A stretch of 64,000 nt of DNA from Lingula anatina (lineage: Eukaryota; Animalia; Brachiopoda): NCBI GenBank assembly GCA_051362555.1, contig CM120641.1, forward strand, positions 20,150,001 through 20,214,000, given 5' to 3'. The notes below the pieces were generated by a model, which was not told the origin of the DNA, did not search any database, and worked only from the letters and a program-made list of their open reading frames with translations. Below are positions 2,391 through 43,559 of this stretch, piece by piece (positions within the stretch are counted from its first letter, which is position 1; each line of letters starts with the position of its first letter). The translations under genes and the position numbers were made by a program.

Positions 2391-4650
2391 TTAACTTTTT
2401 CTTTTGATGACGAGTGGCCCTACATTGTCACCAGTTTCCTTGTTGTGTGCATTATGAGTACCATCACAGTATGGGAACTGAAATAAAGATTTAAATCATT
2501 AAAATTAAATAAAAGTAGACCTCACATATAGTACCTTTGATTTCAAACAGCTAAATATCACAAGGCACTTGCATCAAGAGTTTACTCCCAACACAAATGT
2601 TGACAAAAGAGAAGAAAGCCAGAACAATCCTGCTTGATCAGAAAGAACTTTCAAAACTGTTTTTCCCCACTCATTCAGGGGTTTTAATGATATTTAAAAA
2701 TAACTATTGGCATCTTTGATACCATACTCCTGAATATCTTAACTTCAATTCAAAAGTTTGCACTTAGAAATGGTTCAATTTGTCATAAAAAGGGAGCAGT
2801 TACTCTATAATTTTTTATTTGTTCTGGTCAAATAACTTTTTAAAAGAATACAATGATAAACTGAAGATAACAAAATTAATATTTTTATTGGTTATTTTCC
2901 AGCAAATTGACCTGGTTATAAGGCAACAATTCTAAAAGGCAGTATAGTAGTAGCCAGTGGTACAAAACAGTAGCAAACCTTCTTTGATCTCCAGCATCTA
3001 CAAAATACACTTTTCTCTGCAAGATCTTCAATGTCTACAGCTGTTGCCACTTTCTCACATTCTTTTTGAATATCTGGGTTGATTGGAATCTTTTTCTTCG
3101 ATGGCAGAAATGCTTGCACAGTGAAATATACCATCAATGACACTGTTCCAACAAATGGCAAAAGTCTCAACCAGTCACCGCCTACATTAATAAAGATAAA
3201 TTCTAAAAATAAAAATTTTTAAAAATAATAAAACTTTATGCATGTGCAATTACAAACACAACTGGGCATGCATACTTATTGCAAAAAGGAACCCTCTTAT
3301 CCTGTTGATTAAAAGGCTACTTGCAGACAGATAAATATGCATGTAATCAGTAGAGTTAAAAGACACGAGGTCATGCCAGCATTAAAACATATCATTCTAG
3401 TCACGCTCGGCTGTCACCTTGATTGGATAGTAAACGGTTGTTGTAAAATCGCTAAATGATATTAAAACCGGGTGCATAAACTTGAAAACCACCTAGGACA
3501 ACCTTAGACTGCCACATTAATCCAATACAATGTCCTCTCTAACCTCCAATTACGAAAAAGAAGCCATGCCATTGGACAATGCGACCTCTGCGGTTACGTC
3601 ATTTCCTGAATTGGATTGTAGAGAAGACCGATATAAACATCAGAGGTGGAATTTTGATTTACGGTTTGATAGTGCGTATGCCATGCACGGAATTTACAAA
3701 CGAGCGACGGGATGATGTAGCCTGCAGTATTTGCGGTAAGCGTGCCAAGTTTTAGGCCGCTCCGCTGCCCGGCAGTATTTTATTTCGATTATTATGTTTA
3801 ACTTGGTGGCTTTTTGTTTCACAAGCTCACTCTATTTTATTGTCTCTATGGAGGTATATGGGGACTTTACGACATTCGGTTTGAAGGTATTAACCACTTG
3901 TTATAGTTTATTTTTGCATTGTATTGGATTAATGTGGCAGTCTAAGGTTGTCCTAGGTGGTTTTCAAGTTTATGCACCCGGGTTTTAATATCATTTAGCG
4001 ATTTTACGACAACCGTTTACTATCCAATCAAGGTGACAGCCGAGCGTGATTCTAGTATTAATTCTAGTACCCAATATTTTCCCAATATCTTTATTTTGAG
4101 CCAACCATATCTTTATGTACATTACAAGTACAAGACACTGAGGGCATAAGGAAATCCTGTATAGATCCACAAAGGGAGCATTCACCTACAAATATGTGTC
4201 ACACTTCATTTTACCTGTATTTTTTCCTAGCCATTACTTATTGACAATGAGATGCTGTTATAGATACATCTACATATAGCTAAGTACAGTATAATCCCCA
4301 TCGTGATAACAATCAGGGGAATCTCCCGATAATACTTATAAGTGATCAAAACTGTATCTGTGGATGGTATAAAAGCGTTAGCGTCAAACCATTTACTTTC
4401 GAAATACGTATGCTGACAAAGCAGTTTCACAAAACTTCCTATCTTCCATATCAATTTCAAAAACGGTCTTTTGACCTCTGCTAAGACTGCCATAAAACTA
4501 ACATGATTAACTTTTTTATATCATATCTAAATTTCAACGGGCGACATTTTCACCTGACATATCGGCAAGTCCTTCAAATGAGTCGGGAAATGGAAGATTT
4601 TTCAAGTAATTGGGAAGAGAAACTCGAACAAGGCCTGATACCGCCTCCAT
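2391..4650 (-). CDS. CISD2: CDGSH iron-sulfur domain protein (NEET family, CISD2/Miner1-like). Exons 4650-4554, 3181-2979, 2477-2391
   Basis: Spliced protein [42 protein letters not shown]...[10 protein letters not shown]|[28 protein letters not shown]. It has the 3Cys-1His NEET motif, a TM segment and the CISD2-type LPNYL..LP.PDS N-terminal extension. GT-AG phases are consistent. Confidence 0.92.
3401..4049. mobile_element. Non-autonomous DNA transposon (MITE) in CISD2 intron 1
   Basis: ~132-bp near-perfect terminal inverted repeats (3401-3532 / 3917-4049, TCACGCTCGG...CCGAGCGTGA). Exact 6-bp flanking direct repeat TTCTAG at 3395-3400 and 4050-4055. Confidence 0.9.
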
Positions 4651-7816: not shown

Positions 7817-10617
7817 ATGGTCATACCGTCGAAATGTCCGATGTCCGATGGCACTGTTCTGACACCATCAACAGTGTCTGTAGCTCATACAGAAACAAGA
7901 AGCACCTTCACTACAGATCAAGTGTCAAATGAAGTTCTTTTGAACATACTGCTCAACATTCCCTTTTTGGAGCTGAAAAAATGTACCCAAGTGTGTCAGA
8001 GGTGGAGGGTAAGTTTCACTTATATTTGGTCTAAATATAATGTTTGGTTAAAAGTTTACAATGAAAAAAATGATTTTCACTTCTACAACTATCTTTAAAA
8101 ATTATCTAATGAATTTTTTAAAATACCTATTTATTTTAATAATTTAATCAGTTTCAGGTATGTCTTGTGCTCTTTTAACAACCCCGAGTTGAATTGAATA
8201 TTTTTCTCTTGTTATAGGAGATGGTTGAAGGGTCATACTTCTGGCGATGTTATCTGCAGAAGAATTATTCACTGAAAACACAACTCAGGGTAGAAGGTAA
8301 AGATACTTATACATTCATTTATTTATCTTAGTGTTTTTTATGATATATGCTAATATATGCTAATGTTGGTGCTGAATTGGATTGCATTTGGAAATCATCA
8401 GTTAGCACTTTGTTGAAAATTTCAAATTCCAGAAAGACCTTCAGTATATGCAATGCAAGTACTAGTAACTGTGTCAAATTTTTGTGAAAAAATATCTCAA
8501 AATTGAAAAAAAATTTTAGCTCATATACATGTACAGTCAATTTCATTTCTACCATACTGATGTGCCAATATTTATTTTAAAGTCTTTGCAAACCTGTGCA
8601 CTTGCAAATGTATAACTGATAACCATGAAGTCTTGACCACGCCATAGTTTAGTACTCTTATCAGTCGCCTTAATTACCAGTTTTGATTACCTAGTCAATG
8701 AGTTAAAATAAAGATTCTCATTTTAGTCAGGCACAAATGAGAGAGGCCTTAACTGGTCTAAAAAGTCAGTCCACATATACATGTAAATCATGTTTTTCAT
8801 AGATGTCTTTACTCAAATGAATTTTGTACTACTGGGGCTAGAGGAAAACATTAGATTGCAGGAGCACAGACAGACCATTTCATTTTCACCGTGCTGGTGT
8901 GCTCTAAATATGTGTGTATATATAAATATGTGCTCTCTAAATATGTGCATATACTGGTGTATAATTTATGTATAAAGCTGTGTATATGTTTGTAGGTCCT
9001 CTGACTGACTGGCAAGACGGCCTGCAACCAATGTATAGAGGTGGCTTTGATGCACTTACTGTGCAGCCGGCAGAAGTCTTTCATAACCTACCCAAAAGAC
9101 TCGACAATGGTTTGTGTTATTCTGAATAGTTTTGATATAAAGCAGAAGGTCAAGGTGATAACTATAACAGGCTATTGACCGAGATGGCAATGTTGTAAAA
9201 GAATGAATGTGAATATACGGTTACTGTTATGCAATAAGTTATTTCAAGTTCAACACTTGGGAAATTTCCATAACACCATTCTTTAAGGCTGTATTTAAGA
9301 CTTATGAAAAGTTGTCTTTTATTTCAGGTGTTCTCTTTCCCATAAGCATCCAAGTGGACAAGGCTCCCTCTTCAAAAACTTTGATCACTCTGTTGGAGAC
9401 TTTCAAGACCATCAAATCTACAATAGACAGCAATGGTTTAGTCTATGGTAAGTGCTGTGCCCACAAGCAAAATTTGCTAGATACAGAAATATTTAACTTT
9501 TTAATGTAAGCTTAGCATTTCATAATTTGACAATATTTGTGGTACAAAATGTTTCTGAAAATAGATTTTAATTATATAGTATCATTTAACTTCTAAGATG
9601 TGATTTAAAGGATACGAGTTTCCTGGAAAGGTTTTTTATATAATTTTTCAAATTTTTTTTATCTAACAAAAGTCAGGCCTGTAGGAAGGAGGGTTCAGGG
9701 TTTCAAACAATTTGCCTTGTGGTTGAGAAAAGGTCTGTTATGAATTGAGACTTTTGCCACTATGGCACTGGTCCACTTTTTCACAAGAAGGAATTACAAA
9801 CCCATATATTTGTGAATTTGAATTTGCTGGCTACAGACCTGAAAAGTGTAGAGTAAATACGCAATATAAAATATGTGCCTAGGTCTATGTGGTTCATAAA
9901 TGTAAAGGGCATCTATCTTTAATTGGGCATCTATCTATGTGTATTGAATATGTGAAAGAAAAATAATGATATTTATTTCAGATGGACAGATGGGGTTTGG
10001 GTGGAAGAGTGAGGGCTTTTGTCTAATGGATGTGTTCTTGTTCCCTTGGCAAGAAGACCAGCAGCCAACCAGTGAGGACATTAGCAGAATCTTTATGCTG
10101 AATGAAGATCTGAAGGTAAACATCACTTTCAGTTTATATATTATCAGATTACTATATTCAGGACATTTCCTTCATGGATAACATATGGGTGTCCCTGCCA
10201 GAAGTATATTTAATAGAATTATGTGGACTAAACTGTGAAACAACATTATGATGTCTGGATAGCTTAATCTTAACAGGAAAACTGTGAAGAGTGAGCATTC
10301 CTTTACCTTTTCACCTCCTTATAATTAAAGATAGATGCCCTTTACATTTATGAACCAACCATGGTAACAAACCTCAACACTTTCTAATTCAGGACAGCAT
10401 AATACAACAGAAGAAAACTAAGAGCCAGCTGACCTGTGTTCTTAGCCACCTTGGCTTCCAGCATTGGGTCAGTGATGCCCTATGTCCAGGCAAAGAGTGG
10501 ACACAGCTGTGTTTCAATGTCCACGACCCCACACACATGATGTGCCCCAGTCCTGTATTCCTGTATAGTGATGTTGCACCTGGCTGGATCGGGGGCATTC
10601 TGACAGGATTATGGTGA
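7817..10617 (+). CDS. F-box domain protein (~287 aa). Exons 7817-8008, 8218-8296, 8996-9109, 9328-9447, 9982-10115, 10393-10617
   Basis: Six GT-AG exons total 864 nt in one open frame. F-box motif VSNEVLLNILLNIPFLELKKCTQVCQRWREMVEGSYFWR. The C-terminal domain is not WD40 or LRR. Confidence 0.85.
9674..9841. mobile_element. Degenerate MITE of the CAGGCCCGTAGCCAG-ended family (hAT-like)
   Basis: Ends CAGGCCTGTAG...CTGGCTACAGACCTG. Shares the internal GGTCCACTTTT motif with the copy at 32674. Flanked by AAAAGT on both sides (9668-9673, 9842-9847). Confidence 0.7.
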
Positions 10618-14192: not shown

Positions 14193-14850
14193 TTATGTAG
14201 AATCTTTTTCCTTTATCAACTGCCTGAATACGTCTACTTCTTTAATACTGGTGGATAACCTAAAAGGAAAATAATTAAGGAGGCTATGGTAATCTCAATT
14301 GCACAAGGTTGATAACAATATTTTGTTTCTCTGAACTGACCCATTAATTGATGATCTCTAGAATCAAAGCTGAAGAGAATAAAATACAAAGTGACAAATC
14401 CTTAAAATCACCATCATGCAGAGTTCACTGTACAAAGCTTTCTAGAGTTATAATAAATAAATCTAGTAACAAATAAAGTAAATATTAAATAATATAAATC
14501 ATCCACAAGACAGCAAATAATTACCTTCCAAAGGCATTAAACAATGAAACTATTTCTGATCTGCGTAGCTGGAAATTTTTCTTCTGTTGTGCGTCAACTG
14601 TGGAATCAGGGCCCATTGTATCTCCAGAGAAGAGGATTTTCAAGGCAGTACCCATACCCTGAGTCTGAAATTGTAATTAAACAATATCAAATCCTCAAAT
14701 TTTTCTTGGCCGTAACTGTAAGATATATCAAACTGTTTCATGACCTTTAATAGATTCAAAATTGACAATTTATAAATATAAATGTTTAAATCATTCGTTG
14801 TCCTGTTAAATTGCATGTGCTGTTGAAAGAATTTGTTGAATACACCTCAA

Positions 14851-14897
<47 letters not shown>

Positions 14898-17220
14898 GTA
14901 TATCCAATAAAAATTTCTAGTACATTATATATCCAAGATATTCATTGTACATAAAGTTAAAAACAACAAAAAAAAACTTCAGATCCATATTCTGGAAAAT
15001 AAGTTGGGTTTAAATACATTCAGCACTGAGAGGGATATAGGTTTTATAATTGTTTCTCTGGAAATCCACCAGCTTCTTTATCTGAAAGATTAAACTCAAG
15101 ATTCTTTTTCAGTATAAACATCTATTATCTATTCATCTACTTTTCACAAAAGACACTCAATATTAAATGAGCCATAGCATATGGTTATGAAAGACAAAGG
15201 AGACCTTCCTGTCTGGTTGTAACGTTACCACTTATCTTATTAAGACAGAGTACATACTAAGTTAAACCATCAGAATTAGGCTAGAAACGTGTCAAAAGAG
15301 TATTAATTACAAAATGTAATCTTCCTGTTGACTTTCCACCAACAACAAACACACATACCACCTGCACATAAACTAAGCATAAAATTCAAGCAAAAACTAT
15401 AAAGGATAAAAAGGTCAACCAAAAAGGTTAATGATATGTCCAAAAAATTGCTGGGTGTATACTATACATCACACACTTCCCGTAACTATTCTTGTTAAGA
15501 CATAAAAAGCAGGCTACCTAGCCAAGATGTTGCTACCTTCACATGACTTAAAGAGCAGATGTTATTCAAGATATAATTAAATGTATAATTTTAGTTAGTA
15601 AAGCCAGCTGACAGAATGTGAGTAGTAACTATATTTTCAAGGCAATATCATATTGTATAAAGATTTCCTTTTCTCATGTATTAATTACAAAAAAATACAG
15701 TGAATTTGATTATCACAGCAATTTTCTGTGGATTTTTTTTCCAAAATGTTTTTTTTTCCTTACATTTTTGTGTTAACATGACATGTTTATAATGCTAACT
15801 TGCTATATATCACAATAATAAACCTATATCAATCCTTGTCAATCTGTAAAAGTACAACTTATCTGATGTAGGTGAAGACATGATTATCAGGGAAGTTATG
15901 TGCAACTGAAATTGGGCAAATAAGCCACTCTCATGCAAAATATAAGGTATCACATCTACTGGAAAAAAAAGCAAATAATATCAATATCAGTTGCCCCTCA
16001 AGCAAATATTATATAAAAAGTTTAGTGCTGCAAAAGCTGTGGTTTTGACAGGAGGCAAACACGATTCTGTAAATGACATCTTTTACCTGCACTTTACCCC
16101 ATAATCTGCATTTCTGACATCCCACACAATTCATAATGCGATAAACCTTACGAAAAACTTGACGGAACTCTTCCTGAAATGGTTAAATGGATTATTATAA
16201 GCTGTCAAATGAGTTAAACTGTGAAACAAATTATCTCCACCATACCTGTGTCTTGCCCCATAACTTGCACTTGTCACACCCTACGCAATCCATTATTACT
16301 GATATGTTTCGAAAAAGTTTTCTGAATTCTTCCTGAAATATTTATGTTAAAGAGAGGCTAAAAAGACTGTAAATGTATGCTGATTTTTGATAACATCTGG
16401 TGGATGATAAAATTATCCACAATAATTCTATAATTTTTTGATGATACTTCACAAATATTTCATTTAATAGAAAACTATTATAACATCACTTTCCAACAGA
16501 CTCCCAAAATGCAATATTGTAATTTTTTTTGAAAAGCTAGTTGGTCTGTTCTATACACTTGCATCTTTGCATCAATGCATTTTTTTTTTCTGTTTTAGTA
16601 CATCCCGACCTATACTTAGATTTAATCTTTCAATCACAGATGATCTGATATATAGTCATTCTTTCCATCTTCAATGACATTCAGGTTGTAACCACCATAC
16701 ACATAAAGGTTTCAATTTGGTGAGTTAAGTTTACAAACAGATTTGTACAATATTATTTGTATCATTTTTGTACAGAAAGCCAAAGGGCTGGTATAAGATT
16801 AGCTCCGTCATTTGAAACTTTTCAGTGCCATAGTCACAAGGTATTGTAGCACTTGCAGGATTAAATCAAACTGAGTTGAATTACTGTGGATAATTTTATA
16901 GGAAATTATCATTCATAAAATTGTTGCTTTTATATATCCACAAGATATATTAATCATTTTTTCATCATAACAAGCAGAAAATAACTTTCACTGGTTTACT
17001 GGTTCTATCTGATATATAAAATGTATTTCATAACCAATAAAATCATATTACAACACTCTTTCATAACATTTTCTTCTAGGAATTGATACTGAAACATTTA
17101 AACATCTATCATTCCTTTGCATTTATTTGTAAATATACCAACCAACCTTTAACTGTTGGGCTTCCTTATTATTTCCTTGGAAAAGTCTACTTTCATCAAA
17201 CTGATCTGGGAATGACCTAA

Positions 17221-17255
<35 letters not shown>

Positions 17256-20106
17256 ATACAAAATATTTCAACTGAAAATTTCTTGCGACAAGTTAAACGC
17301 ACTTCATGCTTTTCTTTTAATCAAATCAATCATTCATTAGATAGTAAAGATAACTCTACAGGGCTCTATATGCACTTCCCTTTCATACAACGTGAATGCC
17401 AAGTGCCACTTTTTGATTCAAATTAGCATACCCTTTAAGATATCTAGAAAAATATTAACAGTTCTTCTCCAAACAGTTCTCCAAACTTAAATTTTAAATA
17501 TGAAAGATGAGCATACTTGATAATCTTGAGAAGATCTTTAACAGCATTTCTGGTTTCATTGTCTTCTTTTTCATCACCAGTGAAGAAATCTTCCTGAAAG
17601 ACCAAAACAGTGTAACACAATAATCCTACCTAAAAGTCTATGCTACACACATGTATCTCTCATGATATACAATGGGATATAAGAACCACTCATTTCTAGC
17701 AATTGTGAAAACCATCAATCCATTCCTTGTCTCTCTGGTTATTTGTGGTTTGTGCATTTTTCCCTATTTCAGATATCTATTAAACTAAATTCATTAATTA
17801 ATAGATTAATATCATAATGTGTTTGATTTACATACCATACAAGCATATATTATGAATTAAATTATTAAATAAAATTAACTACATAATCCTATGAATACGG
17901 TCTTGCCAATAACAAGGATTATGTTTTATTTACTTCACTTTACTATATAACATTTTTTCTTCTATTTTTTAATGCACGAGTCTGACCTGTTCTAGATATG
18001 GAGCAGCTTTTGCCAAGGCACGAAGTTCCACCAAGTATGTAAAATACAAATTCTTTAATCTCTGTGGGCCTTCTCCATTAGTTGTCTCTGGGTCAAAACG
18101 CTTCTGAAATTCTTCTACATTTGGACCCCATGTTCCTTTGCCATAACCATTTGCAGCTAGTAATACAAAGAAAATATTCATATGAGAGTAAACTGAGCAT
18201 CCTACTGGCAATCAAAACTCTTAAAATGGATTCTGATTGGATGTTTTTATTATACCAAGATGGTGGGAAAACCTTCAGTTTTCATTTTCATAAAATTCAA
18301 TATCCTTTAAACCCAGTACTGGCTTACATGCCTCATCTTGTAATGATTTTTATTACAACTAATTAATGAAAAATAAATAATATAAGCATAAAACATTTCA
18401 CACAATGCTTATCAACCACACACCTTACTGTTATTATATTTAAAAAAAATGAAAATAAAAATAAAAATAAAAAGGCCTTTATGTCTTAAAATTGTATCAT
18501 AAATGCCAACGATGCCCTTCAACCAACTAGCAGAATATAACAATTTTGTTTTGAGAGCACAGGATATGTAAGGGGGAAAACATGAATTAATTTAATTCTC
18601 AACTGAGATAAAAATATCTTCTACAACTCACCAGGCAAATAATTTTTGGCAGAGAGGTGGACATTTATGCTGGTGTGCAGTCCAGAGATCATGCGGAAGA
18701 ACACCCTCTTCTCAAGACACATCCCTTGAAAGTAAAAAAAAAAAAAAAAAAGAATTATATGTATGAAAAAAAAATACATTTAAGAGGTGTATGCTGGGAT
18801 CAGCAGCCATAATCTTGTTAGATTTTACCATTTTGTTTAAGTAATCCATGTCCTTAGAAGTGGGTCCAAACCAAATAGAGTAAATTTAAAAGTGTTTACA
18901 TAATTAACTACAACTTTTTTGTAAAGCAAATTAAATTAAAAATCACATTACGAATTTAGCCACAAATAATAAATCTATCCAAAAATTGTTCACTCACTTT
19001 ATTCTTATCTCACCATCCCAAACCTCCCTCCCAAAAATGAATAAAAAATCCACATCCAAAAAAAAAAAAAATAATAATAATAATAAAATAAAATAAAAAT
19101 AACACGAAAGAGTTCATTTATACAATTTAGAATCAACAAAACACTTCTTTTTGAAAAAAAAAAAGACAGAACAATCCAAGTTCACTGAAGGGTTACACCA
19201 AAACACCATAAACAAATTAATATCACCAGGAGACAAAGGTTTAGCTTCAAGAAAACTAAATTAAATATAAAGATCTCCCATATGCCAACATTACTGATGC
19301 AATATAATTTCACAAAGACATGGTAAACATTTAAAACTCAAATCACGTAAATTTTGTGGAAAAAAATTAAGCTTACATCTCATCTGAGAAAAGCTTCACA
19401 AAAGTTATGAAGTCATAAGCAACATCTACGTAATATTATACAATTGTTCATATGCTAAAAAGGGTGGGCTTTTTATGAAGCATTTCCCAAATGTATATAG
19501 TACACAGGACCCAGTTTCACAATGCAAGTACTTCCAGCAGAAAGGTCTACTTCAATCCAGAATATTTTTGCAGTAGTCCACAAGTTAGAAAAAATGAATC
19601 ATCAATCTAAAACATCATACAATCATTCTTACATTTTGTAAAACTTGCCCAATATTCTCACTTGAGTGGAAATACGATTATCTTGTGTAACGGCAGACTA
19701 AAACATTCTGTTTTGAAGTTAAGACCACCTTTTGACTTTGGTTCTTTAGCAAAACCAGCTCCCAGACACAAACCATCAAAAGAGATGCCACACCCACTGT
19801 TCTAATAACCTGTTACCTTTTAAGGATCCTACTGGGGTAAAGACAAAGCAAGGTTGTGATAAATAGTAACTGGCTACTCTATGCATTATGAACATTAAGC
19901 AAGCCTTTCAGTAGCTATACATACGTTATTGTCAGTTAGAGAATACAATATGCTCATAAAGATAAGAGTTAATAAAAGCAACAGTTCATAGTTGAACAAC
20001 TAAATTCAAAATGCCATAAAATACTTCTCTATCAAATTGTATAAAGTTGTGGATATTATTCATTTAATATACTTTAAGGCAAAATATTTACATAGACAGT
20101 GAGGCT

Positions 20107-20178
<72 letters not shown>

Positions 20179-23100
20179 CATTCACTTTAAAAAATAAAAG
20201 ATACAAATTCAAAAGTATGATGGTTGGTTATATAGATTTTATATCATTCTTGAAAGTTTTTGCAATTTTCATGTCAACACAAGGAATGGTTTTTTAAGTA
20301 AATGTAAATGAAATAAACATGGGGTATTCAGTACATCAAAATTACTTATTACTTTCATTCATAGCTGATACTTCAAAATGACAAAAATACAATTTGACAC
20401 TGACTGAGGAGAGACTGTATGTCAGATGGCCACAATAACTCTGACGATGATCACAAAATGGCAATGACATAGACAGATTGGTGATAGTATATATATATAC
20501 TGACACTGTGTCTGTATATAGAAATAAAGGAAATGGGAGCCTAGATCAATATCTAAAGTCTAATCTGACTTTTCATAAATTGCTGAAATGATGAGCTTAA
20601 GTCCTTATATCAAGCTGTTTTTATCTCCAGTTTTTATGTCAGTAGAGTTTTATCATGAGATGCCTAAACATAAACATGCACAAAATAAACATTTGAATAA
20701 ACAAACAAGAAGTTATACTTGGAAAATAGATAAATAATTTTCTATATGAAATGTTAGTGCACGTCACAAAAATATTAAAATACTAGACTAACAAAAAACA
20801 AAAGCACAAAAAAGAAAAAAATACTGTAGGGATTTGACACTTTTTTTTATAAATTCATTTATAAAAGAGACAGCAATCTACAAAAGAGCAACTTGAATAT
20901 GGGACTTCTATACAGTATGCACACTCATCAAATACAAAAATATATACTGTGGTAACCTCATCAAAATACAAAATAAACATAAAATAAATAGTATTACTTG
21001 GTATTTTGAATAGGCTACACGACCTTACTCATTAAATCAAGACCACTTTGTAAAGCTTTACCTTCAGCTCCTACATAAAAAATACATAAAAACCAAGAAA
21101 TAAACATTAACAATAAAAACAATGTAGCTGATACAAACTTATCTGAAAGTGAAATCAAATAATAATATGAAACAAGTAAGGTAATTTACTAACTGAATAA
21201 CAGATGTGCAAATCCTAGGTATCCTGTTTCCATAGACCTCTGTAAACTGTAGATTTTATGTGCAAAGCAAATGCTTATCAAATCCCATACCACATTAAAA
21301 TGGGTCTAAACACAGGCCTACTACCGGTGAACTATACAGCAAATACGCATACCAGTATTATTAGCATAACTGCAATGGCCAAACTGCTTTTTAGGGATTT
21401 TAGGCATTAAATGCTCTCTGGGGCAAATTCAGTAAAGCAAGGATTCAAATAATTATTAATATCATCAGCAAATATTAAAATTAGCATAGTTATCAAAGGC
21501 TTTTCTATACCCTTTACATACCTCTGGCTTCAGCTGGCCCATACCCAGGGACAGGCGTGTCAGGCCTACCGAGAAAAAAAATACTTGTAACCAAATGATT
21601 CAAATTAGTGCCTTCACTTTTATTTCCTGTAATATCAACCACTCATTAAATGATCACAGAATAAGAAAAAAACTCTGCAATAGAGATTATAGGGAGAATA
21701 TACTGATTTGAAATACCCAGGATCCATTCTTACTTAAAGCAATTCTCTTGATAAATTGTCCTCCAAATCCTCCAAGCAGACTCCCCTTTGTAACCTGTGT
21801 ACCTCTCAGGGTTCAAGGTCAGGTCAACATATTCCATGTCAGCTGAATTGTCATCTGGGAAAATAATAAAAATCATATTTGCCCAATTTCCATTAAATTA
21901 TATACTTTCATTAATTGTTTGACATAGGATGTACACAACCCTGTTCCAAATTTGAAATAATTTCTCAACAGTCAATTTAACAATTAAATCATCTCAATCG
22001 CACAGAAAATGACTTATGAAAATCAATAAATTTTTATATTATATATGTCTTTATAATCACAACCATGTCAAAATGTCTCAAAACTGGGTCATAATCTGTT
22101 TATCTTACCATCCAGCTCACAGAAATTGTCTTGAGCATCGTCATACTTTGACCAGCTTTCAAAGGATTCCCTGTCTTCAGAACTGGGAAGAAGAAAAGAA
22201 ATATGCTCGATATTAGTGTTACTTATCCAGGTGAAAATTGAGCATCAATATTTTGACAGTACTTTAATGAATTAAAAAATATTGCAGTGTCAAGAGTCTG
22301 TGTCAGGTGTGATGAAAAAAGATAGATGTATGTCATACCTGATTGTTTTATCAATACCTCCCAGCTCCTTCTGCTCCTTGCAGTCTGTATGGAGCTGCTC
22401 TTGAGCCTCTTTTGTATACTGAAATTTAAGTGATATCTTGACAATTATCTTGTGCTTTTATCTCAGGGAAAAGTGCTAAAATTTCCATGATATTTTTTAT
22501 ATATAAAGATTAAATGCTCACTGGATGCCTGTATAGTTACCTTGTTTTCTTCATGCTTTGATTCCTTGTAGCCAGGTGGTAACTGGTCCTGTAAAAAAGA
22601 TGGATGGTTTAATTAAGACACAAGATTATACTATCTGCTACTAAAAGTTAAATGTAAATTAAATTAAATGTAAAACAAGAATTCTTTAAAGCAACGTTGC
22701 ATGTATATTACTCTTGTATACAACCACAACATTTCTTTCCAGCTATCTCTTCAGCTAATTTATATAGGTATTGAGACTGAACAGAAACATAAATGCCAAA
22801 TAAATATCCCAATATAAAAATTATGTGATCTGTTGGTTATTGAAACATTTTGACCAATTAGTATTGTTTGTATACCAGTAATTACTGACTAGAAGTACTC
22901 TTTTGCTCTATGGTAATATTGTACATTACACTGATTGAATTTTATTTAAAAAAAAAACTCATTTCTGTAGAATTAAAAGTTTTGGTCTGTACTGACCAAT
23001 TAAAATTCACTACAATGTTGGCTGTGTGGCACATTTTCTAGTCAATGGCTATAACAATTTAGTTACCTTTTGTGTTTACCAATGCCACAATATACACAGA

Positions 23101-24583
23101 CCTCCAGCTTTGATGTGTGCCACCTTTTTTATTTTTACTGAAGCATACTCATAAAAATTTTATGGTTTCTAGAAAGTACAACAGCAGTTGCCATAGTTAA
23201 TAGACTGGGCCCCTGTTTCAACATTGCCAGACAGCACTACCCAGCCTTGATGAGACAGCTTTAACACAGTCAAAGATGTAATTGGCGCAACAAACTTCAA
23301 TCGTGCACCGTTGACATTCAAAAATGACCACTGACATACACGGAATTTTGAATTCGAAGAAGCTGGCCTTCGCTAGCTCTAAAACTCTGGTAAAGTAACA
23401 TAGTATAGTTCTCACCTCAGAACACTTGTCTACATGGCAGTCTCTCAAGGCACACCTACCATCATCACCCCAGAATGGACACGGTCTTTTTAAATTTACC
23501 TAAAATGAAAATTACACACCTCTTGATAAATTGGGTATAATAATAATAATAATAACAATAACAACAACAACAATAGTAATAATAACAATAGCATCCAGGT
23601 ATGATAATAATAATAATGATGATAAAAGGTATGTTGGAAAACTTATTCATGAATCCGAGTGAGTTTCATAAAATAAGGCAAGCCAAAAAATTAAACAAGT
23701 CTAACATTTTAAGATTCAGTAACAATTAATAGTACAGTAGTTCGCTTAAAAAAATTTTTTTCTGAAACTTGGGTACAACTTACTTGTTATAAAACAGGTA
23801 CAATATTTAATTCAAAGTGGACTACTACTGCTTAATTAGGGTCAAAGTCATTAATTTTTTGTCTTTAAGCTTACACCACTTTTCGAGCTACAACTGTTTT
23901 GTGAAACAGGCCCCAGAAACATGAATTAACAATACTAACAATGGCCTTTGTTTTTCAAATTTTATCTTCATTAGATTAGTAATAAAAATTCTGAATATCT
24001 CTCTGAAAGTAGTCATACAATGCCATGCCTGCTGAACTTATCTAAACTATCTTTTGAATAATATGGAAGTACTTTATGGTGTGACTAATTGTGCCATTTG
24101 TTCCATGACAGACAGTAATAAATCACTGCTAGGCCACACAATACTTCTTACCTGTTGCTGCTACCTTTTGAAGAATCAAACATTTTGAAGAATCATTCTG
24201 AACCAAATTGATTGGCAGTCTAGTTGAAATTTAAAATGGTAACAGAAGTAAAATAGGATGTATTCCCTTTTTCTTTCTGAAAGTCTTTGACTCACCTTGA
24301 AGAATCTAAAATAATCTTTATTTAGAAGGCTGTGGAGTCTGGGGAAAATCTTCAGATTATTAAAAGAATCCAAGCTTTCTATTTTACATGAGCAGTCATC
24401 TACTTCTCCTTTTAACTGAAAATATAATGTTTGTAATTTGTTCAGTTTTCAATGAATGTATTGAAATTAAATGGAGAATTGAATGTAAAAAAAGTAAAGT
24501 CATTAAAGATTAATTTACCTGTACAGATCAAATTAATAGATTAATTTTATTTCACTTAACTGAAAACACAAAATAATGTCTCC

Positions 24584-24667
<84 letters not shown>

Positions 24668-27039
24668 CATTTTTTCTTTATTTTTTTCATCAATAAAATT
24701 AGGTAAATTATCTGTTAATAATAGAATGAATATAATAAAAAAACTGAAAATGCAAAGCGTTCATAAAAAGAAATTCTCATAACTGAAATTCCCGGAAAAC
24801 TTAATAATAGAATAAATATTCTGAAAAATCCATATCCAGACTGCAAGTGAAAAGTATAAAAAATATATATGAAGTGCCCTGATAAAGCAGATAAAGCAGA
24901 ATCTTGAATATTATCTATTTGGGTCATTTCCCAAAATCTTTCAACTATTGTTAAGCTAAAAATGTTATGATCAATAAATCAGTGTGGTCACCTGTCACCC
25001 CTAATAACAATTGTTTCGCCTTCTGTTATCAGGTTTGAAACAAAAATTAAATATAGTTGTGCCCATCTCCATAATGCAATTAAAACAAAGCATTTACTTA
25101 CAGGAATCTAATGAGTGCATCATGTATTTTATATAAAAAGATTAATCACATAAATGTTCATGCTAAACAAACAAACAAAAGCAACAGAGGAACATGTTAA
25201 TTAATAAAAACATAAAAACATAAATTCTACAGCAGCATAGAGTGGGCAGAATAATCCTTTCAGCCTGAGTTTCATAGCCAACATGGACACTGTGCTTGTT
25301 TCAATGCATGCCCACTTGTTATTTCTAAGCTTTAGTAGCAGTTATTTGGAATTTACCGTGCAAATCAAAAATGTTAGGGACTTGTATCAACTTTGTCACA
25401 TGACTTTTTCAAAACCACAAAATCTGGATAAGCTGGATAACTGGGAGAGCCTCTGAGATTGGCTTGACAACCTTTAATATGTTTACTAGTACATGTATTA
25501 TCAAATCTACTTCCCATTTCTAATTTCAGACACTGAAAACAATAAAAAGCATCTGCAGTCAATATTTATTTCTGTACAGGAAGACAAGGTGGTCTAATAT
25601 ACTGGTAAGTTATTTAGAATTAAATTATTTCATCAAAAATGCTATAAAACATCTAAATCACGTGCAACGTGCAGGGAGGGGTTGAGCAATGGTTTTTGAG
25701 TAAAAGAAATATATACATAGTTTTTTTTAAAAGGGAATTCTGATTTGGTGGGAAAATCTTGCAAAAGATACCTTTAACAGAAAACAACCAGAAAAATATC
25801 CCTGGAAAAATTCTGTCAGCTTTTATGTGTTGCTGCACTGCAATCACTACTCTGCTATTATTTCTAACCCCACTCTCTCCACATCCTGCAAAATCTTCCC
25901 TCGAGTCGACCTTGGACTCTTGAGCCACTCACACGCTCAATTCATACCGTCCAGCTCGTATCCCTTTTGTTTTGGAGGAGAATTTAACAGGCTACAGCAT
26001 CTTAGACTGAACAGTGATTCTGGATACCATCCTACTTGACACAAGCGAGACACTTATGATCAAGCATGAGACTATAAAGCCGAGATGGCTCATATCATTC
26101 ACAATGGCGAGACACCATTGATGAAACCTCACTAAACAAAGGAGAGACACCTTTGCTTACCGACCCCCTCCGTCCCAAATTTTTTCTTTTTTTATTTCTG
26201 ACTCTGCAGCTGATGAAGGTCATTTGTTGACCGAAAAGCACTTTCTGCAACCAGTCCACCCTCCCCTTTTCCCCCCAACAGGCAAGACACCTCTATTGTA
26301 CCAATCAATCTTTTCAGGGCACCCTATGTATATCGGTATCTACAGGTATATAAATCTCATACTAGGTAGGCGAGACACCTACCTTCCTATCAGAGACAAT
26401 CTTTCCTCATAATAAAGGCGAGAAGCCTAACACACTTTAAAAGCCGCTTTCAACTCTGCAAAGGGCACTATCAAAACACATGTCCTCAGAGGCCCAGCTC
26501 TGAATCGTGTTATTTTGGTAAAGTGGAATCTAACTAGGGCAAGAGCCGACCACCCCCAACACAAAGTATCAATATTTTGGGCCATTTCAGATCCCATTAG
26601 GCTACATAAACTGCTATCAGATGTCCTCAGCCATCTGACACATTGACTGACAATGATTCATAAATTGTTATCACTTAATATCATCCCAACCTATATTTTA
26701 AAATTTAACATATAGTCTAAGACTCTTTAGAAAATTCATTTTAAAAGCTAAAATAAAATGTCATGGAAGGAAAACACTCTTTAAACTCATAAACCTTAAG
26801 CTCACTTTGTTAAAATGTTGAATTATTTCTAAATGTTTGTTCTAAGTGTTTGGAGAGTTGTGCAAAAATCAATGTTTTCATCTTGGACATGTACATCTCA
26901 ATGTCATTCATTCGTTGTCAATGTCAGCGTATACAGTAGTACTCACCTTACAAAAGCAATCTTTTTCGTCTGCTGACAAAGTGACTGTCACTCCTAGGAC
27001 AACGTATGCCGTCAGAATCCCAAGCTTTGGAAGCCACAT
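14193..27039 (-). CDS. ERO1L: ERO1-like ER oxidoreductin. Exons 27039-26947, 24415-24296, 23499-23416, 22588-22541, 22418-22339, 22182-22109, 21854-21734, 21565-21522, [21070-21062 or 21070-21029], [19831-19817], 18724-18632, 18156-17987, 17593-17517, 17216-17147, 16332-16246 (or 16173-16087), 14664-14525, 14259-14193
   Basis: Signal peptide plus [14 protein letters not shown]; shuttle region [17 protein letters not shown]; [16 protein letters not shown]; [22 protein letters not shown]; [19 protein letters not shown]; active site [29 protein letters not shown]. All intron phases are consistent. Confidence 0.95.
14854..14894. repeat. (CA)n microsatellite
   Basis: Direct reading. Confidence 0.95.
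16087..16173 (-). CDS. ERO1L: Duplicate ERO1 active-site exon (alternative exon B)
   Basis: 87 nt, flanked by TTTCAG and GTAAAA, phase 0/0. Encodes [29 protein letters not shown], homologous to exon 16332-16246. Confidence 0.85.
17218..17258. repeat. (TAAA)n microsatellite forming the polypyrimidine tract of an ERO1 acceptor on the - strand
   Basis: Direct reading; abuts the acceptor AG at 17218-17217. Confidence 0.9.
20108..20176. repeat. (CA)n microsatellite
   Basis: Direct reading. Confidence 0.95.
24586..24663. repeat. (AT)n microsatellite
   Basis: Direct reading. Confidence 0.95.
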
Positions 27040-32843: not shown

Positions 32844-33526
32844 TAAAGGGATAATAACTCTTCGTATGAGATCTATATTTCACAATAAAAACATTGTGAA
32901 TAACTCATAGAAATATAATATATTCTGTTTTACCACAAAAACGGCAGTTATAGCTATTTTTCTGATATCTGAGCTTGTCTTTAGACCACGTGACCTCCAT
33001 TGATGGCTATACTCTGTTAAAATCTCTTAAGAGATTTTAACAAAAAGCCAAACTTTTTAGAAAAAAAAAAGGGACTAACTTTGAATGTAAAAATTGATTC
33101 ATTTACCATTGGTAAATATGGGAAAATTTAAAAAATTAAACGAGACTTACCTTGGTTAAGTCGAAGTTTGATTTCAATTCTTTGAGTAAAGAATTGAGGG
33201 AGGGCTTAACTGAGATCCGGTTCCGCGCGCAGGGCACTTTTCAAAGTGTTTTGTCACATTAACCACATGGAATTAATTACATTAATTCCCCACAGCTCTC
33301 TTCCTCTATAATACAAGCAATGAGCTGTAACCCAAAGTTGGGTGGGAGGGTGGCAGTTAAGCCCTCCCTCAATTCTTTACTCAAAGAATTGAAATCAAAC
33401 TTCGACTTAACCAAGGTAAGTCTCGTTTAATTTTTTAAATTCTTTTTCGTAAGAAGAATTTCATTGGTCTTAACTGAGACTTTAAAGCTTGATGTGACAA
33501 ACATTTCATTCATTTCAAAAGATTCT

Positions 33527-42697: not shown

Positions 42698-43559
42698 TAT
42701 GGGCGGCGGTTTATACAAAAATGCAAAACACGATTAGTCGTCATCGTTATCAGATCAGAAGGCAAAATACGACTAGTAGTCGTCAAAACGCAACTAGTCA
42801 TCAAAACGCAACTAGTCATCATCAAAACGCAACTTGTCATCAAAACGCAACTAGTCATCATCAAAACGCAACTAGTCATCAAAACGCAACTTGTCATCAA
42901 AACACGATTTGACGCCAGATGGCGCCCATTGTACGAAAATCTAGGCCAAGTCACATGATCCACAGTGATCAAAATGGCGGACGTTATTGAAGCAGCATTA
43001 TCATATTCCTCGCTCGAACTCGAGAATTATCTCGAGTTCGAGATATTATATATATATAATATCATTATTAGATTGTACGCGTAGAGATAATTCTCGAGTT
43101 CGAACTCGAACTCGAGAATTATCTCGAGTTCGAGATATTATATATATATAATATCATTATTAGATTGTACGCGTAGAGATAATTCTCGAGTTCGAGCGAG
43201 AAATATGATAATGCTGCTTCAATAACGTCCGCCATTTTGATCACTGTGGATCATGTGACTTGGCCTAGATTTTCGTACAATGGGCGCCATCTGGCGTCAA
43301 ATTGCGTTTTGATGACAAGTTGCGTTTTGATGATGACTAGTTGCGTTTTGATGATGACAAGTTGCGTTTTGATGATGACAAGTTGCGTTTTGATGATGAC
43401 TAGTTGCGTTTTGATGACTAGTTGCGTTTTGACGACTACTAGTCGTATTTTGCCTTCTGATCTGATAACGACGACGACTAATCGTGTTTTCATTTCGACT
43501 GATCTGATAACGATGACGACTAATCGTGTTTTGCATTTTTGTATAAACCGCCGCCCATA
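42698..43559. mobile_element. Foldback-type non-autonomous IS3EU-like element
   Basis: Ends TATGGGCGGCGG...CCGCCGCCCATA (TAYGG termini). 6-bp TSD ATTTTC at 42692-42697 and 43560-43565. The ~330-bp inverted arms contain 18/21-bp tandem units. Central 92-bp tandem duplication. Confidence 0.88.

Follow-up and report, generated by a model that had tools for sequence, protein, structure and literature searches.

Mutually exclusive splicing of two active-site exons in the ERO1 gene of the brachiopod Lingula anatina

The ERO1 locus and its paired exons

The window, a stretch of 64,000 nucleotides from the genome of Lingula anatina, contains an ERO1 gene on its minus strand. The features of this gene are listed in Table 1. 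The peptide of exon B had its best match in Lingula anatina ERO1-like beta (three candidates in that search). The spliced model with exon B encodes 473 amino acids, three of which differ from RefSeq XP_013393688.1, and the majority of the ERO1 introns were confirmed by RNA joints. The Pfam ERO1 domain was found in both RefSeq isoforms at 422 and 419 bits (cut-off 27), and Lingula ERO1 matched the human Ero1alpha structures with an E-value of 1e-149. The protein has the same family domain, Cys positions and helical fold as human ERO1A/ERO1B and yeast Ero1p (PF04137). Cysteines are kept at the equivalents of human positions 35, 37, 46, 48, 85, 94, 99, 104, 131, 166, 208, 241, 391, 394 and 397. 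In the 475-aa isoform, the shuttle CxxxxC corresponds to Cys 89/94 and the inner CxxCxxC to 394/397/400, with the inner triad present in both exons.

RefSeq lists 13 Lingula ERO1-like isoforms from two near-identical loci, and both annotated loci carry both exons. Isoform X1 of each locus (XP_013400735.1 and XP_013393687.1) carries exon A, and the remaining 11 of the 13 carry exon B. The two loci are probably haplotypes, given the heterozygosity of 1.6% that is reported for the Lingula genome (PMC4595640). Two other observations concern the 5′ part of the gene. Most RefSeq isoforms have two additional residues where exons 1 and 2 meet (window 24420-24415), and a joint of six reads was found at 24420 in run X8. 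Reads from both strands, with many differences, cover 25888-26775 in intron 1, which is probably a transcribed repeat.

Table 1. Features of the Lingula ERO1 gene, in positions of the window
Feature	Position	Strand	Remarks
ERO1, ATG to stop	14193..27039	-	Lingula anatina ERO1-like, PF04137
Common downstream exon	14525..14664	-	RNA joints from A or from B
Mutually exclusive exon B	16087..16173	-	Sequon lost; D>N before first Cys, D>Q after second Cys
Intron between A and B	16174..16245	-	72 nt, shortest of 15 measured; next 122 nt
Mutually exclusive exon A	16246..16332	-	Residues 379-407 of the 475-aa isoform
Inverted repeat, proximal arm	16407..16428	-	22 nt; ends about 75 nt upstream of the A acceptor
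Inverted repeat, distal arm	16878..16899	-	22 nt; 449 nt loop
Common upstream exon	17147..17216	-	RNA joints to A or to B
Alternative microexon	19817..19831	-	15 nt, or 12 nt from the NAGNAG acceptor at 19828; RefSeq isoforms, splice sites
Alternative microexon	21029..21070	-	9 nt (21070-21062) or 42 nt (to 21029); RefSeq isoforms, splice sites, loose-end reads of run X5

An earlier note on this DNA, made from the letters alone, had described exons A and B as stop-free, minus-strand exons of 87 nt and phase 0/0, 72 nt apart, with TTTCAG acceptors and GT donors. All of this was verified, as were the coordinates and both peptides. As is looked for in a mutually exclusive pair, the two are neighbouring homologous exons of equal length and phase. 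They are identical at 58 of 87 nucleotides and 19 of 29 residues, and different codons are used at 10 of the 19 identical residues. The synonymous distance is saturated (NG86 dS undefined; maximum-likelihood dN 0.22 and dS about 25) and thus gives no usable dN/dS. The earlier note had taken the strong divergence of the DNA, with all three Cys and LWGKxQ kept, as a sign of selection on both copies, and the saturated dS together with the 19 identical residues does indicate that B is an old duplicate constrained at the protein level. Both exons also keep all three Cys and the C-terminal LWGK stretch, as had been proposed. The exon A peptide matched exon B with an E-value of 2e-11 in a tblastn search of the window and three loci; because of this value, and because both exons are spliced into mRNA, the likeness is not due to chance. 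No third copy was found within the window by tblastn. Among the read variants listed, none introduced a stop or frameshift into exon B. Those seen there were Arg>His at 16151, a variable position (run X4, also in RefSeq; the window has Arg), and a synonymous variant at 16090 (runs X7 and X9).

RNA junctions and sample-dependent use of the exons

Eight of the nine species-labelled RNA runs were aligned (X6 was left out), and 6-30% of each run was read. By study, the runs form the sets P1 (X1, X2 and X3), P2 (X4 and X5) and P3 (X7, X8 and X9). Joints were counted from three reads up; joints at repeat sites were dropped (one, then three), and two weak rows fell outside the listed joints.

Four joints were found at the pair: upstream exon to A, A to the downstream exon, upstream exon to B, and B to the downstream exon. 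They gave 299 junction counts over the eight runs, each linking A or B to the common flanks, where one read may count at both junctions. These are four of the five junctions that the earlier note had proposed for mutually exclusive splicing. The fifth, from A to B, was not among the joints listed, and neither was a joint skipping both exons, against the 299 single-exon counts. The same data answer the two simpler possibilities raised with that proposal, a dead duplicate and constitutive inclusion of both exons: joints of exon B were found, and no joint of A with B was listed. We are confident that Lingula ERO1 includes exactly one of the two active-site exons.

The choice differed strongly between the sample sets. 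The A/B counts were 16/0, 14/0 and 19/0 in the P1 runs X1, X2 and X3 (total 49/0), 0/10 and 0/16 in the P2 runs X4 and X5 (total 0/26), and 9/39, 4/55 and 4/113 in the P3 runs X7, X8 and X9 (total 17/207), where the share of B was 81-97%. Use of A and B is thus near all-or-none by sample set, with sample set confounded with study and two to three runs per set. At the downstream junction alone, P1 had 21/0 and P2 had 0/14 (Fisher p 4e-10, the units being reads and not animals). The notion of B as a minor form did not hold, since B is the dominant form in five of the eight runs and is carried by 11 of the 13 RefSeq isoforms.

The runs of P1 and P2 have the same variant letters at 14638, 22160, 22398, 22553 and 22568 and used opposite exons, and each P3 run holds both forms. 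Genotype is therefore an unlikely cause of the choice between A and B. In P3, reads were present in the intron after B (window 14665-16086) and were essentially absent from the intron before A. This is in keeping with the choice of acceptor being the first step. In X8, other long introns contain reads as well. Many intronic and UTR sites of the P3 animals have letters other than those of the window, which suggests a distinct population.

Introns and RNA structure around the pair

A scan for the weak motif YTNAY alone gave six branch-point candidates in the intron between A and B. Five of them are 24-48 nt away from the A donor; the sixth is at 63 nt, which leaves just 10 nt to the acceptor. 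A donor-branch distance below 50 bp is given as the accepted criterion for steric interference (PMC5740500). Judging from these predicted branch points of a weak motif, the 72-nt intron likely enforces A/B exclusivity sterically. The upstream exon would be spliced to the acceptor of A or to that of B. After a choice of A, the intron would be too short for the spliceosome to link A with B, its branch point being less than 50 nt from the donor, and A would therefore be spliced to the downstream exon. The choice itself would be made by a splicing factor specific to a tissue or stage. Motif counts for splicing factors around the exons were uninformative.

Two other enforcers were considered and rejected. 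The models with A, with B, with A and B and with neither all stay in frame; nonsense-mediated decay was ruled out as the enforcer, since the products that include or skip both exons keep the frame. Competing RNA structures of the docking-site/selector type were the second. No shared docking site was found, the single strong stem lies upstream of A only, and pairing within the A-B intron was no better than in shuffles (16/30 and 13/30).

The stem is formed by the 22-nt inverted repeat of Table 1, which is fully paired on the transcribed strand with one G-U pair; such a repeat arose in one of 200 shuffles. It may be a splicing bridge that brings the upstream donor nearer A, or a decayed MITE end or other transposon remnant. 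The latter is considered because several other inverted-repeat elements of similar span lie in the window. Long MITE- or foldback-like inverted-repeat elements were seen at 3401-4049, 9890-10357, 33123-33443 and 42698-43559, the last with tandem subrepeats within its arms.

Residue changes in exon B

Human positions were assigned by counting back from human Cys391 in an alignment to 3ahq. In this numbering, exon B changes Asn384 to Lys, Ser386 to Tyr and Asp390 to Asn. The changes to the N-I-S and M-D-C segments that the earlier note had pointed out were confirmed; it had missed that they delete an N-glycosylation sequon and that A is itself derived. The protein has two N-x-S/T sequons, one of which is lost with B. 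Exon A keeps the N-I-S sequon (Asn387) and the Asp before the first Cys.

The closest homologues (119, from the best 120 of 2278 listed) have the Asn in 119/119, Ser or Thr in 119/119 and the Asp in 117/119, so that B is without a sequon and an Asp found in nearly all ERO1 homologues. Exon A carries rare changes of its own: H>L (1/119), R>V (0/119) and L>T (0/119). Departures from the family majority were counted at 5 of 29 positions in A and 8 of 29 in B. The column-frequency score of B (-63) was below those of all 119 homologues (leave-one-out minimum -52), and that of A (-39) was also low; the median was -14. We take human Asn384 to carry a glycan, and no support for this was found in the open-access literature.

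Similar changes occur in more distant proteins. Among 148 divergent ERO1s examined, nine were without the motif. The other 139 comprised four with both the sequon loss and D>N, seven with the loss only, one with D>N only and 127 with neither (p 1e-4 for co-occurrence, uncorrected for kinship). With Lingula B included, about four changes or origins would be needed to account for the pair of changes on a FastTree tree with long branches. The carriers of both changes are P0259, P0298, P0313 and P0323, one of which is a choanoflagellate protein. Five proteins that form a separate clade, and two single ones, have lost the sequon and kept the Asp. From these sequence comparisons, the combined loss of the sequon and D>N appears to be a viable, coupled alternative state that recurs in nature; the pattern suggests as much. 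A Lys stands before the first Cys in P0093 (Cordylochernes scorpioides ERO1LB), a 678-aa model in which the middle of ERO1 is repeated letter for letter, likely an artefact of assembly or annotation.

The earlier note had described the exon as the FAD-proximal CxxCxxC. This stands for the second and third Cys, the active-site pair Cys394-Cys397, which is described as adjoining FAD (PMC13287676). It does not stand for the first Cys, which forms a long-range disulfide with human Cys85. The role of Cys85-Cys391 is disputed, being possibly regulatory according to some and structural according to others, and one group is reported to have been unable to produce a Cys85-Cys391 mutant (PMC6238587).

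An alignment-based model of the B form has a helix at residues 371-394 and a pLDDT of 84-93 for residues 371-410. The alignment on which it is based consists mostly of A-like sequences, and a single-sequence fold gave a pLDDT of 37. The model matched ERO1 structures only, with 3ahq and 3ahr the best (Foldseek E 8e-25 for 3ahq). In it, the changes of B are predicted to sit on the helix leading into the first Cys.

Conservation of the pair and loop microexons

The earlier note had looked to relatives for a conserved exon B, and none was found. Ten clusters from molluscs, nemerteans and annelids, with 58 members listed in all (for Mytilus, 15 of 29), showed no second version of the segment: each had a single one, bar a one-residue difference among Haliotis members. 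Of the three candidates found with the exon B peptide, only that of Lingula was B-type. Lingula's was also the only B-type sequence among the best 120 of 2278 matches listed, none of which held two motifs. Likewise, two motifs in one ERO1 were absent from the best 150 of 4537 matches, and no B-like or two-copy sequence occurred among 110 short matches. Three metagenome loci had one exon copy each. The protein and metagenome searches yielded no recognisable ERO1 of another brachiopod or of a phoronid. The searches for B-like exons covered proteins, mostly one per cluster, so that an unannotated second exon would be missed. On present sequence evidence, the exon pair is apparently restricted to Lingula.

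No paper on the ERO1 exon pair was found in the open-access literature, where supplements could list the event; MetazExp is described as including Lingula and calling MXE events. In this sense the pair is new, as the earlier note had supposed, but both isoforms are already in the automatic annotation of RefSeq. These isoforms have the same two peptides at the same position, and their records name no mutually exclusive event, switch or meaning. The ERO1 pair is a case of real, regulated mutually exclusive splicing, and has the features of the class that were tested except conservation across species.

The gene also has alternative microexons. Both fall in the loop that separates the equivalents of Cys208 and Cys241, whose disulfide has been described as sealing the site of oxygen reduction (PMC5979612). 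For the microexon at 19817..19831, no RNA joint was among those listed. The Lingula loop occurs in five lengths: 17, 20, 24, 25 and 35 aa. Loop length also varies among isoforms in eight of the 10 clusters (Lineus, Owenia, Haliotis, Gigantopelta, Mizuhopecten, Biomphalaria, Littorina and Octopus), often as 17 versus 22 aa; the pattern did not apply to the Mytilus and Tubulanus clusters. Loop splicing occurs more widely than the exon pair, and of the two regulatory splice events it may be the better conserved. No paper on an ERO1 microexon was found in the open-access literature.

Proposed functional difference and its alternatives

The two forms share all catalytic and regulatory cysteines, and each would work as an FAD oxidase that acts on PDI. 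B would lose a glycan site seven residues before the Cys391 equivalent, which in human ERO1 forms the disulfide to the shuttle-loop region (Cys85-Cys391), and would neutralise the Asp adjoining it. These changes would alter how easily this disulfide forms or opens and, with it, the activation threshold and H2O2 output. B would be expected to be the more loosely regulated form, although the direction is a guess. Overall, the one-of-two exon choice switches between sample sets, and we think it fairly probable that the activity of the two oxidases is under regulation of different strictness. A broader version is possible and is put forward tentatively. ERO1 splicing would act as a gearbox, in which swapping one catalytic helix for the other would switch on or off an N-glycan that is close to universal, together with an acidic residue beside Cys85-Cys391. 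This would give a tight or a loose ERO1 by tissue or life stage, while the microexons would independently adjust how long the oxygen-seal loop between Cys208 and Cys241 is across lophotrochozoans.

The switch could also be real and the enzymes equivalent. Each exon would have lost recognition in some tissues or stages, and both would be kept as the sole form somewhere, by passive subfunctionalisation. All-or-none use by sample set would suffice to preserve both copies, both have drifted from the family majority, the sequon has been lost in 11 of 139 other ERO1s, and the pair has not been seen outside Lingula. However, the changes in B hit the most invariant positions other than Cys, and they repeat a pairing from unrelated lineages, which one would not expect of drift alone. 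We regard equivalent enzymes as rather unlikely. It is a good deal less probable that the B form has little or no oxidase activity and serves to damp ER oxidation, for instance at low oxygen in the burrow, with PDI oxidised by other routes. In favour of this, B is the most divergent segment version by column score relative to the 119 close homologues, but it is the sole form in P2, with all 26 counts of the two runs, predominates in P3, keeps every Cys of the protein and the LWGK stretch, and has substitutions like those in other ERO1s. It is very improbable that genotype, population or an assembly artefact, and not regulation, lies behind the use of A and B: the confounding of sample set with study and the many differences of the P3 runs from the window would allow it, but P1 and P2 use opposite exons on common variant letters, every P3 run contains both forms and both RefSeq loci carry both exons.

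Mutually exclusive exons retune other enzymes, including pyruvate kinase M1/M2 and ketohexokinase A/C. OGDH exons 4a/4b resemble Lingula A/B as homologous tandem exons of equal length that are used one at a time and in a sample-dependent manner, and their exclusivity is reported to be enforced by branch points near the donor (PMC7969005). Unlike in OGDH, pyruvate kinase and ketohexokinase, the exon swapped in Lingula holds the catalytic cysteine pair and a sequon; we infer its functional effect, and the case comes from one invertebrate so far. Vertebrates have two ERO1 paralogues that are described as differing in regulation (PMC6238587), whereas Lingula has two active-site exons in one gene.

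The finding concerns a single species to date, and its isoforms already stood unremarked in RefSeq. The pace at which disulfides form is set by ERO1, which is also a main source of H2O2 in the ER, and its regulation is known to act via cysteine switches and paralogues. Splicing of the ERO1 active-site exon itself is a route that we did not find described in the open-access literature. B is a natural, highly expressed variant at otherwise invariant positions, beside the disputed Cys85-Cys391 disulfide. Comparison of A with B, or the introduction of B's three changes into human ERO1, makes the role of this disulfide testable. If the gearbox is true, B would be a natural mutant that reveals the role of Asn384, Ser386 and Asp390 in every ERO1, the human enzymes included.
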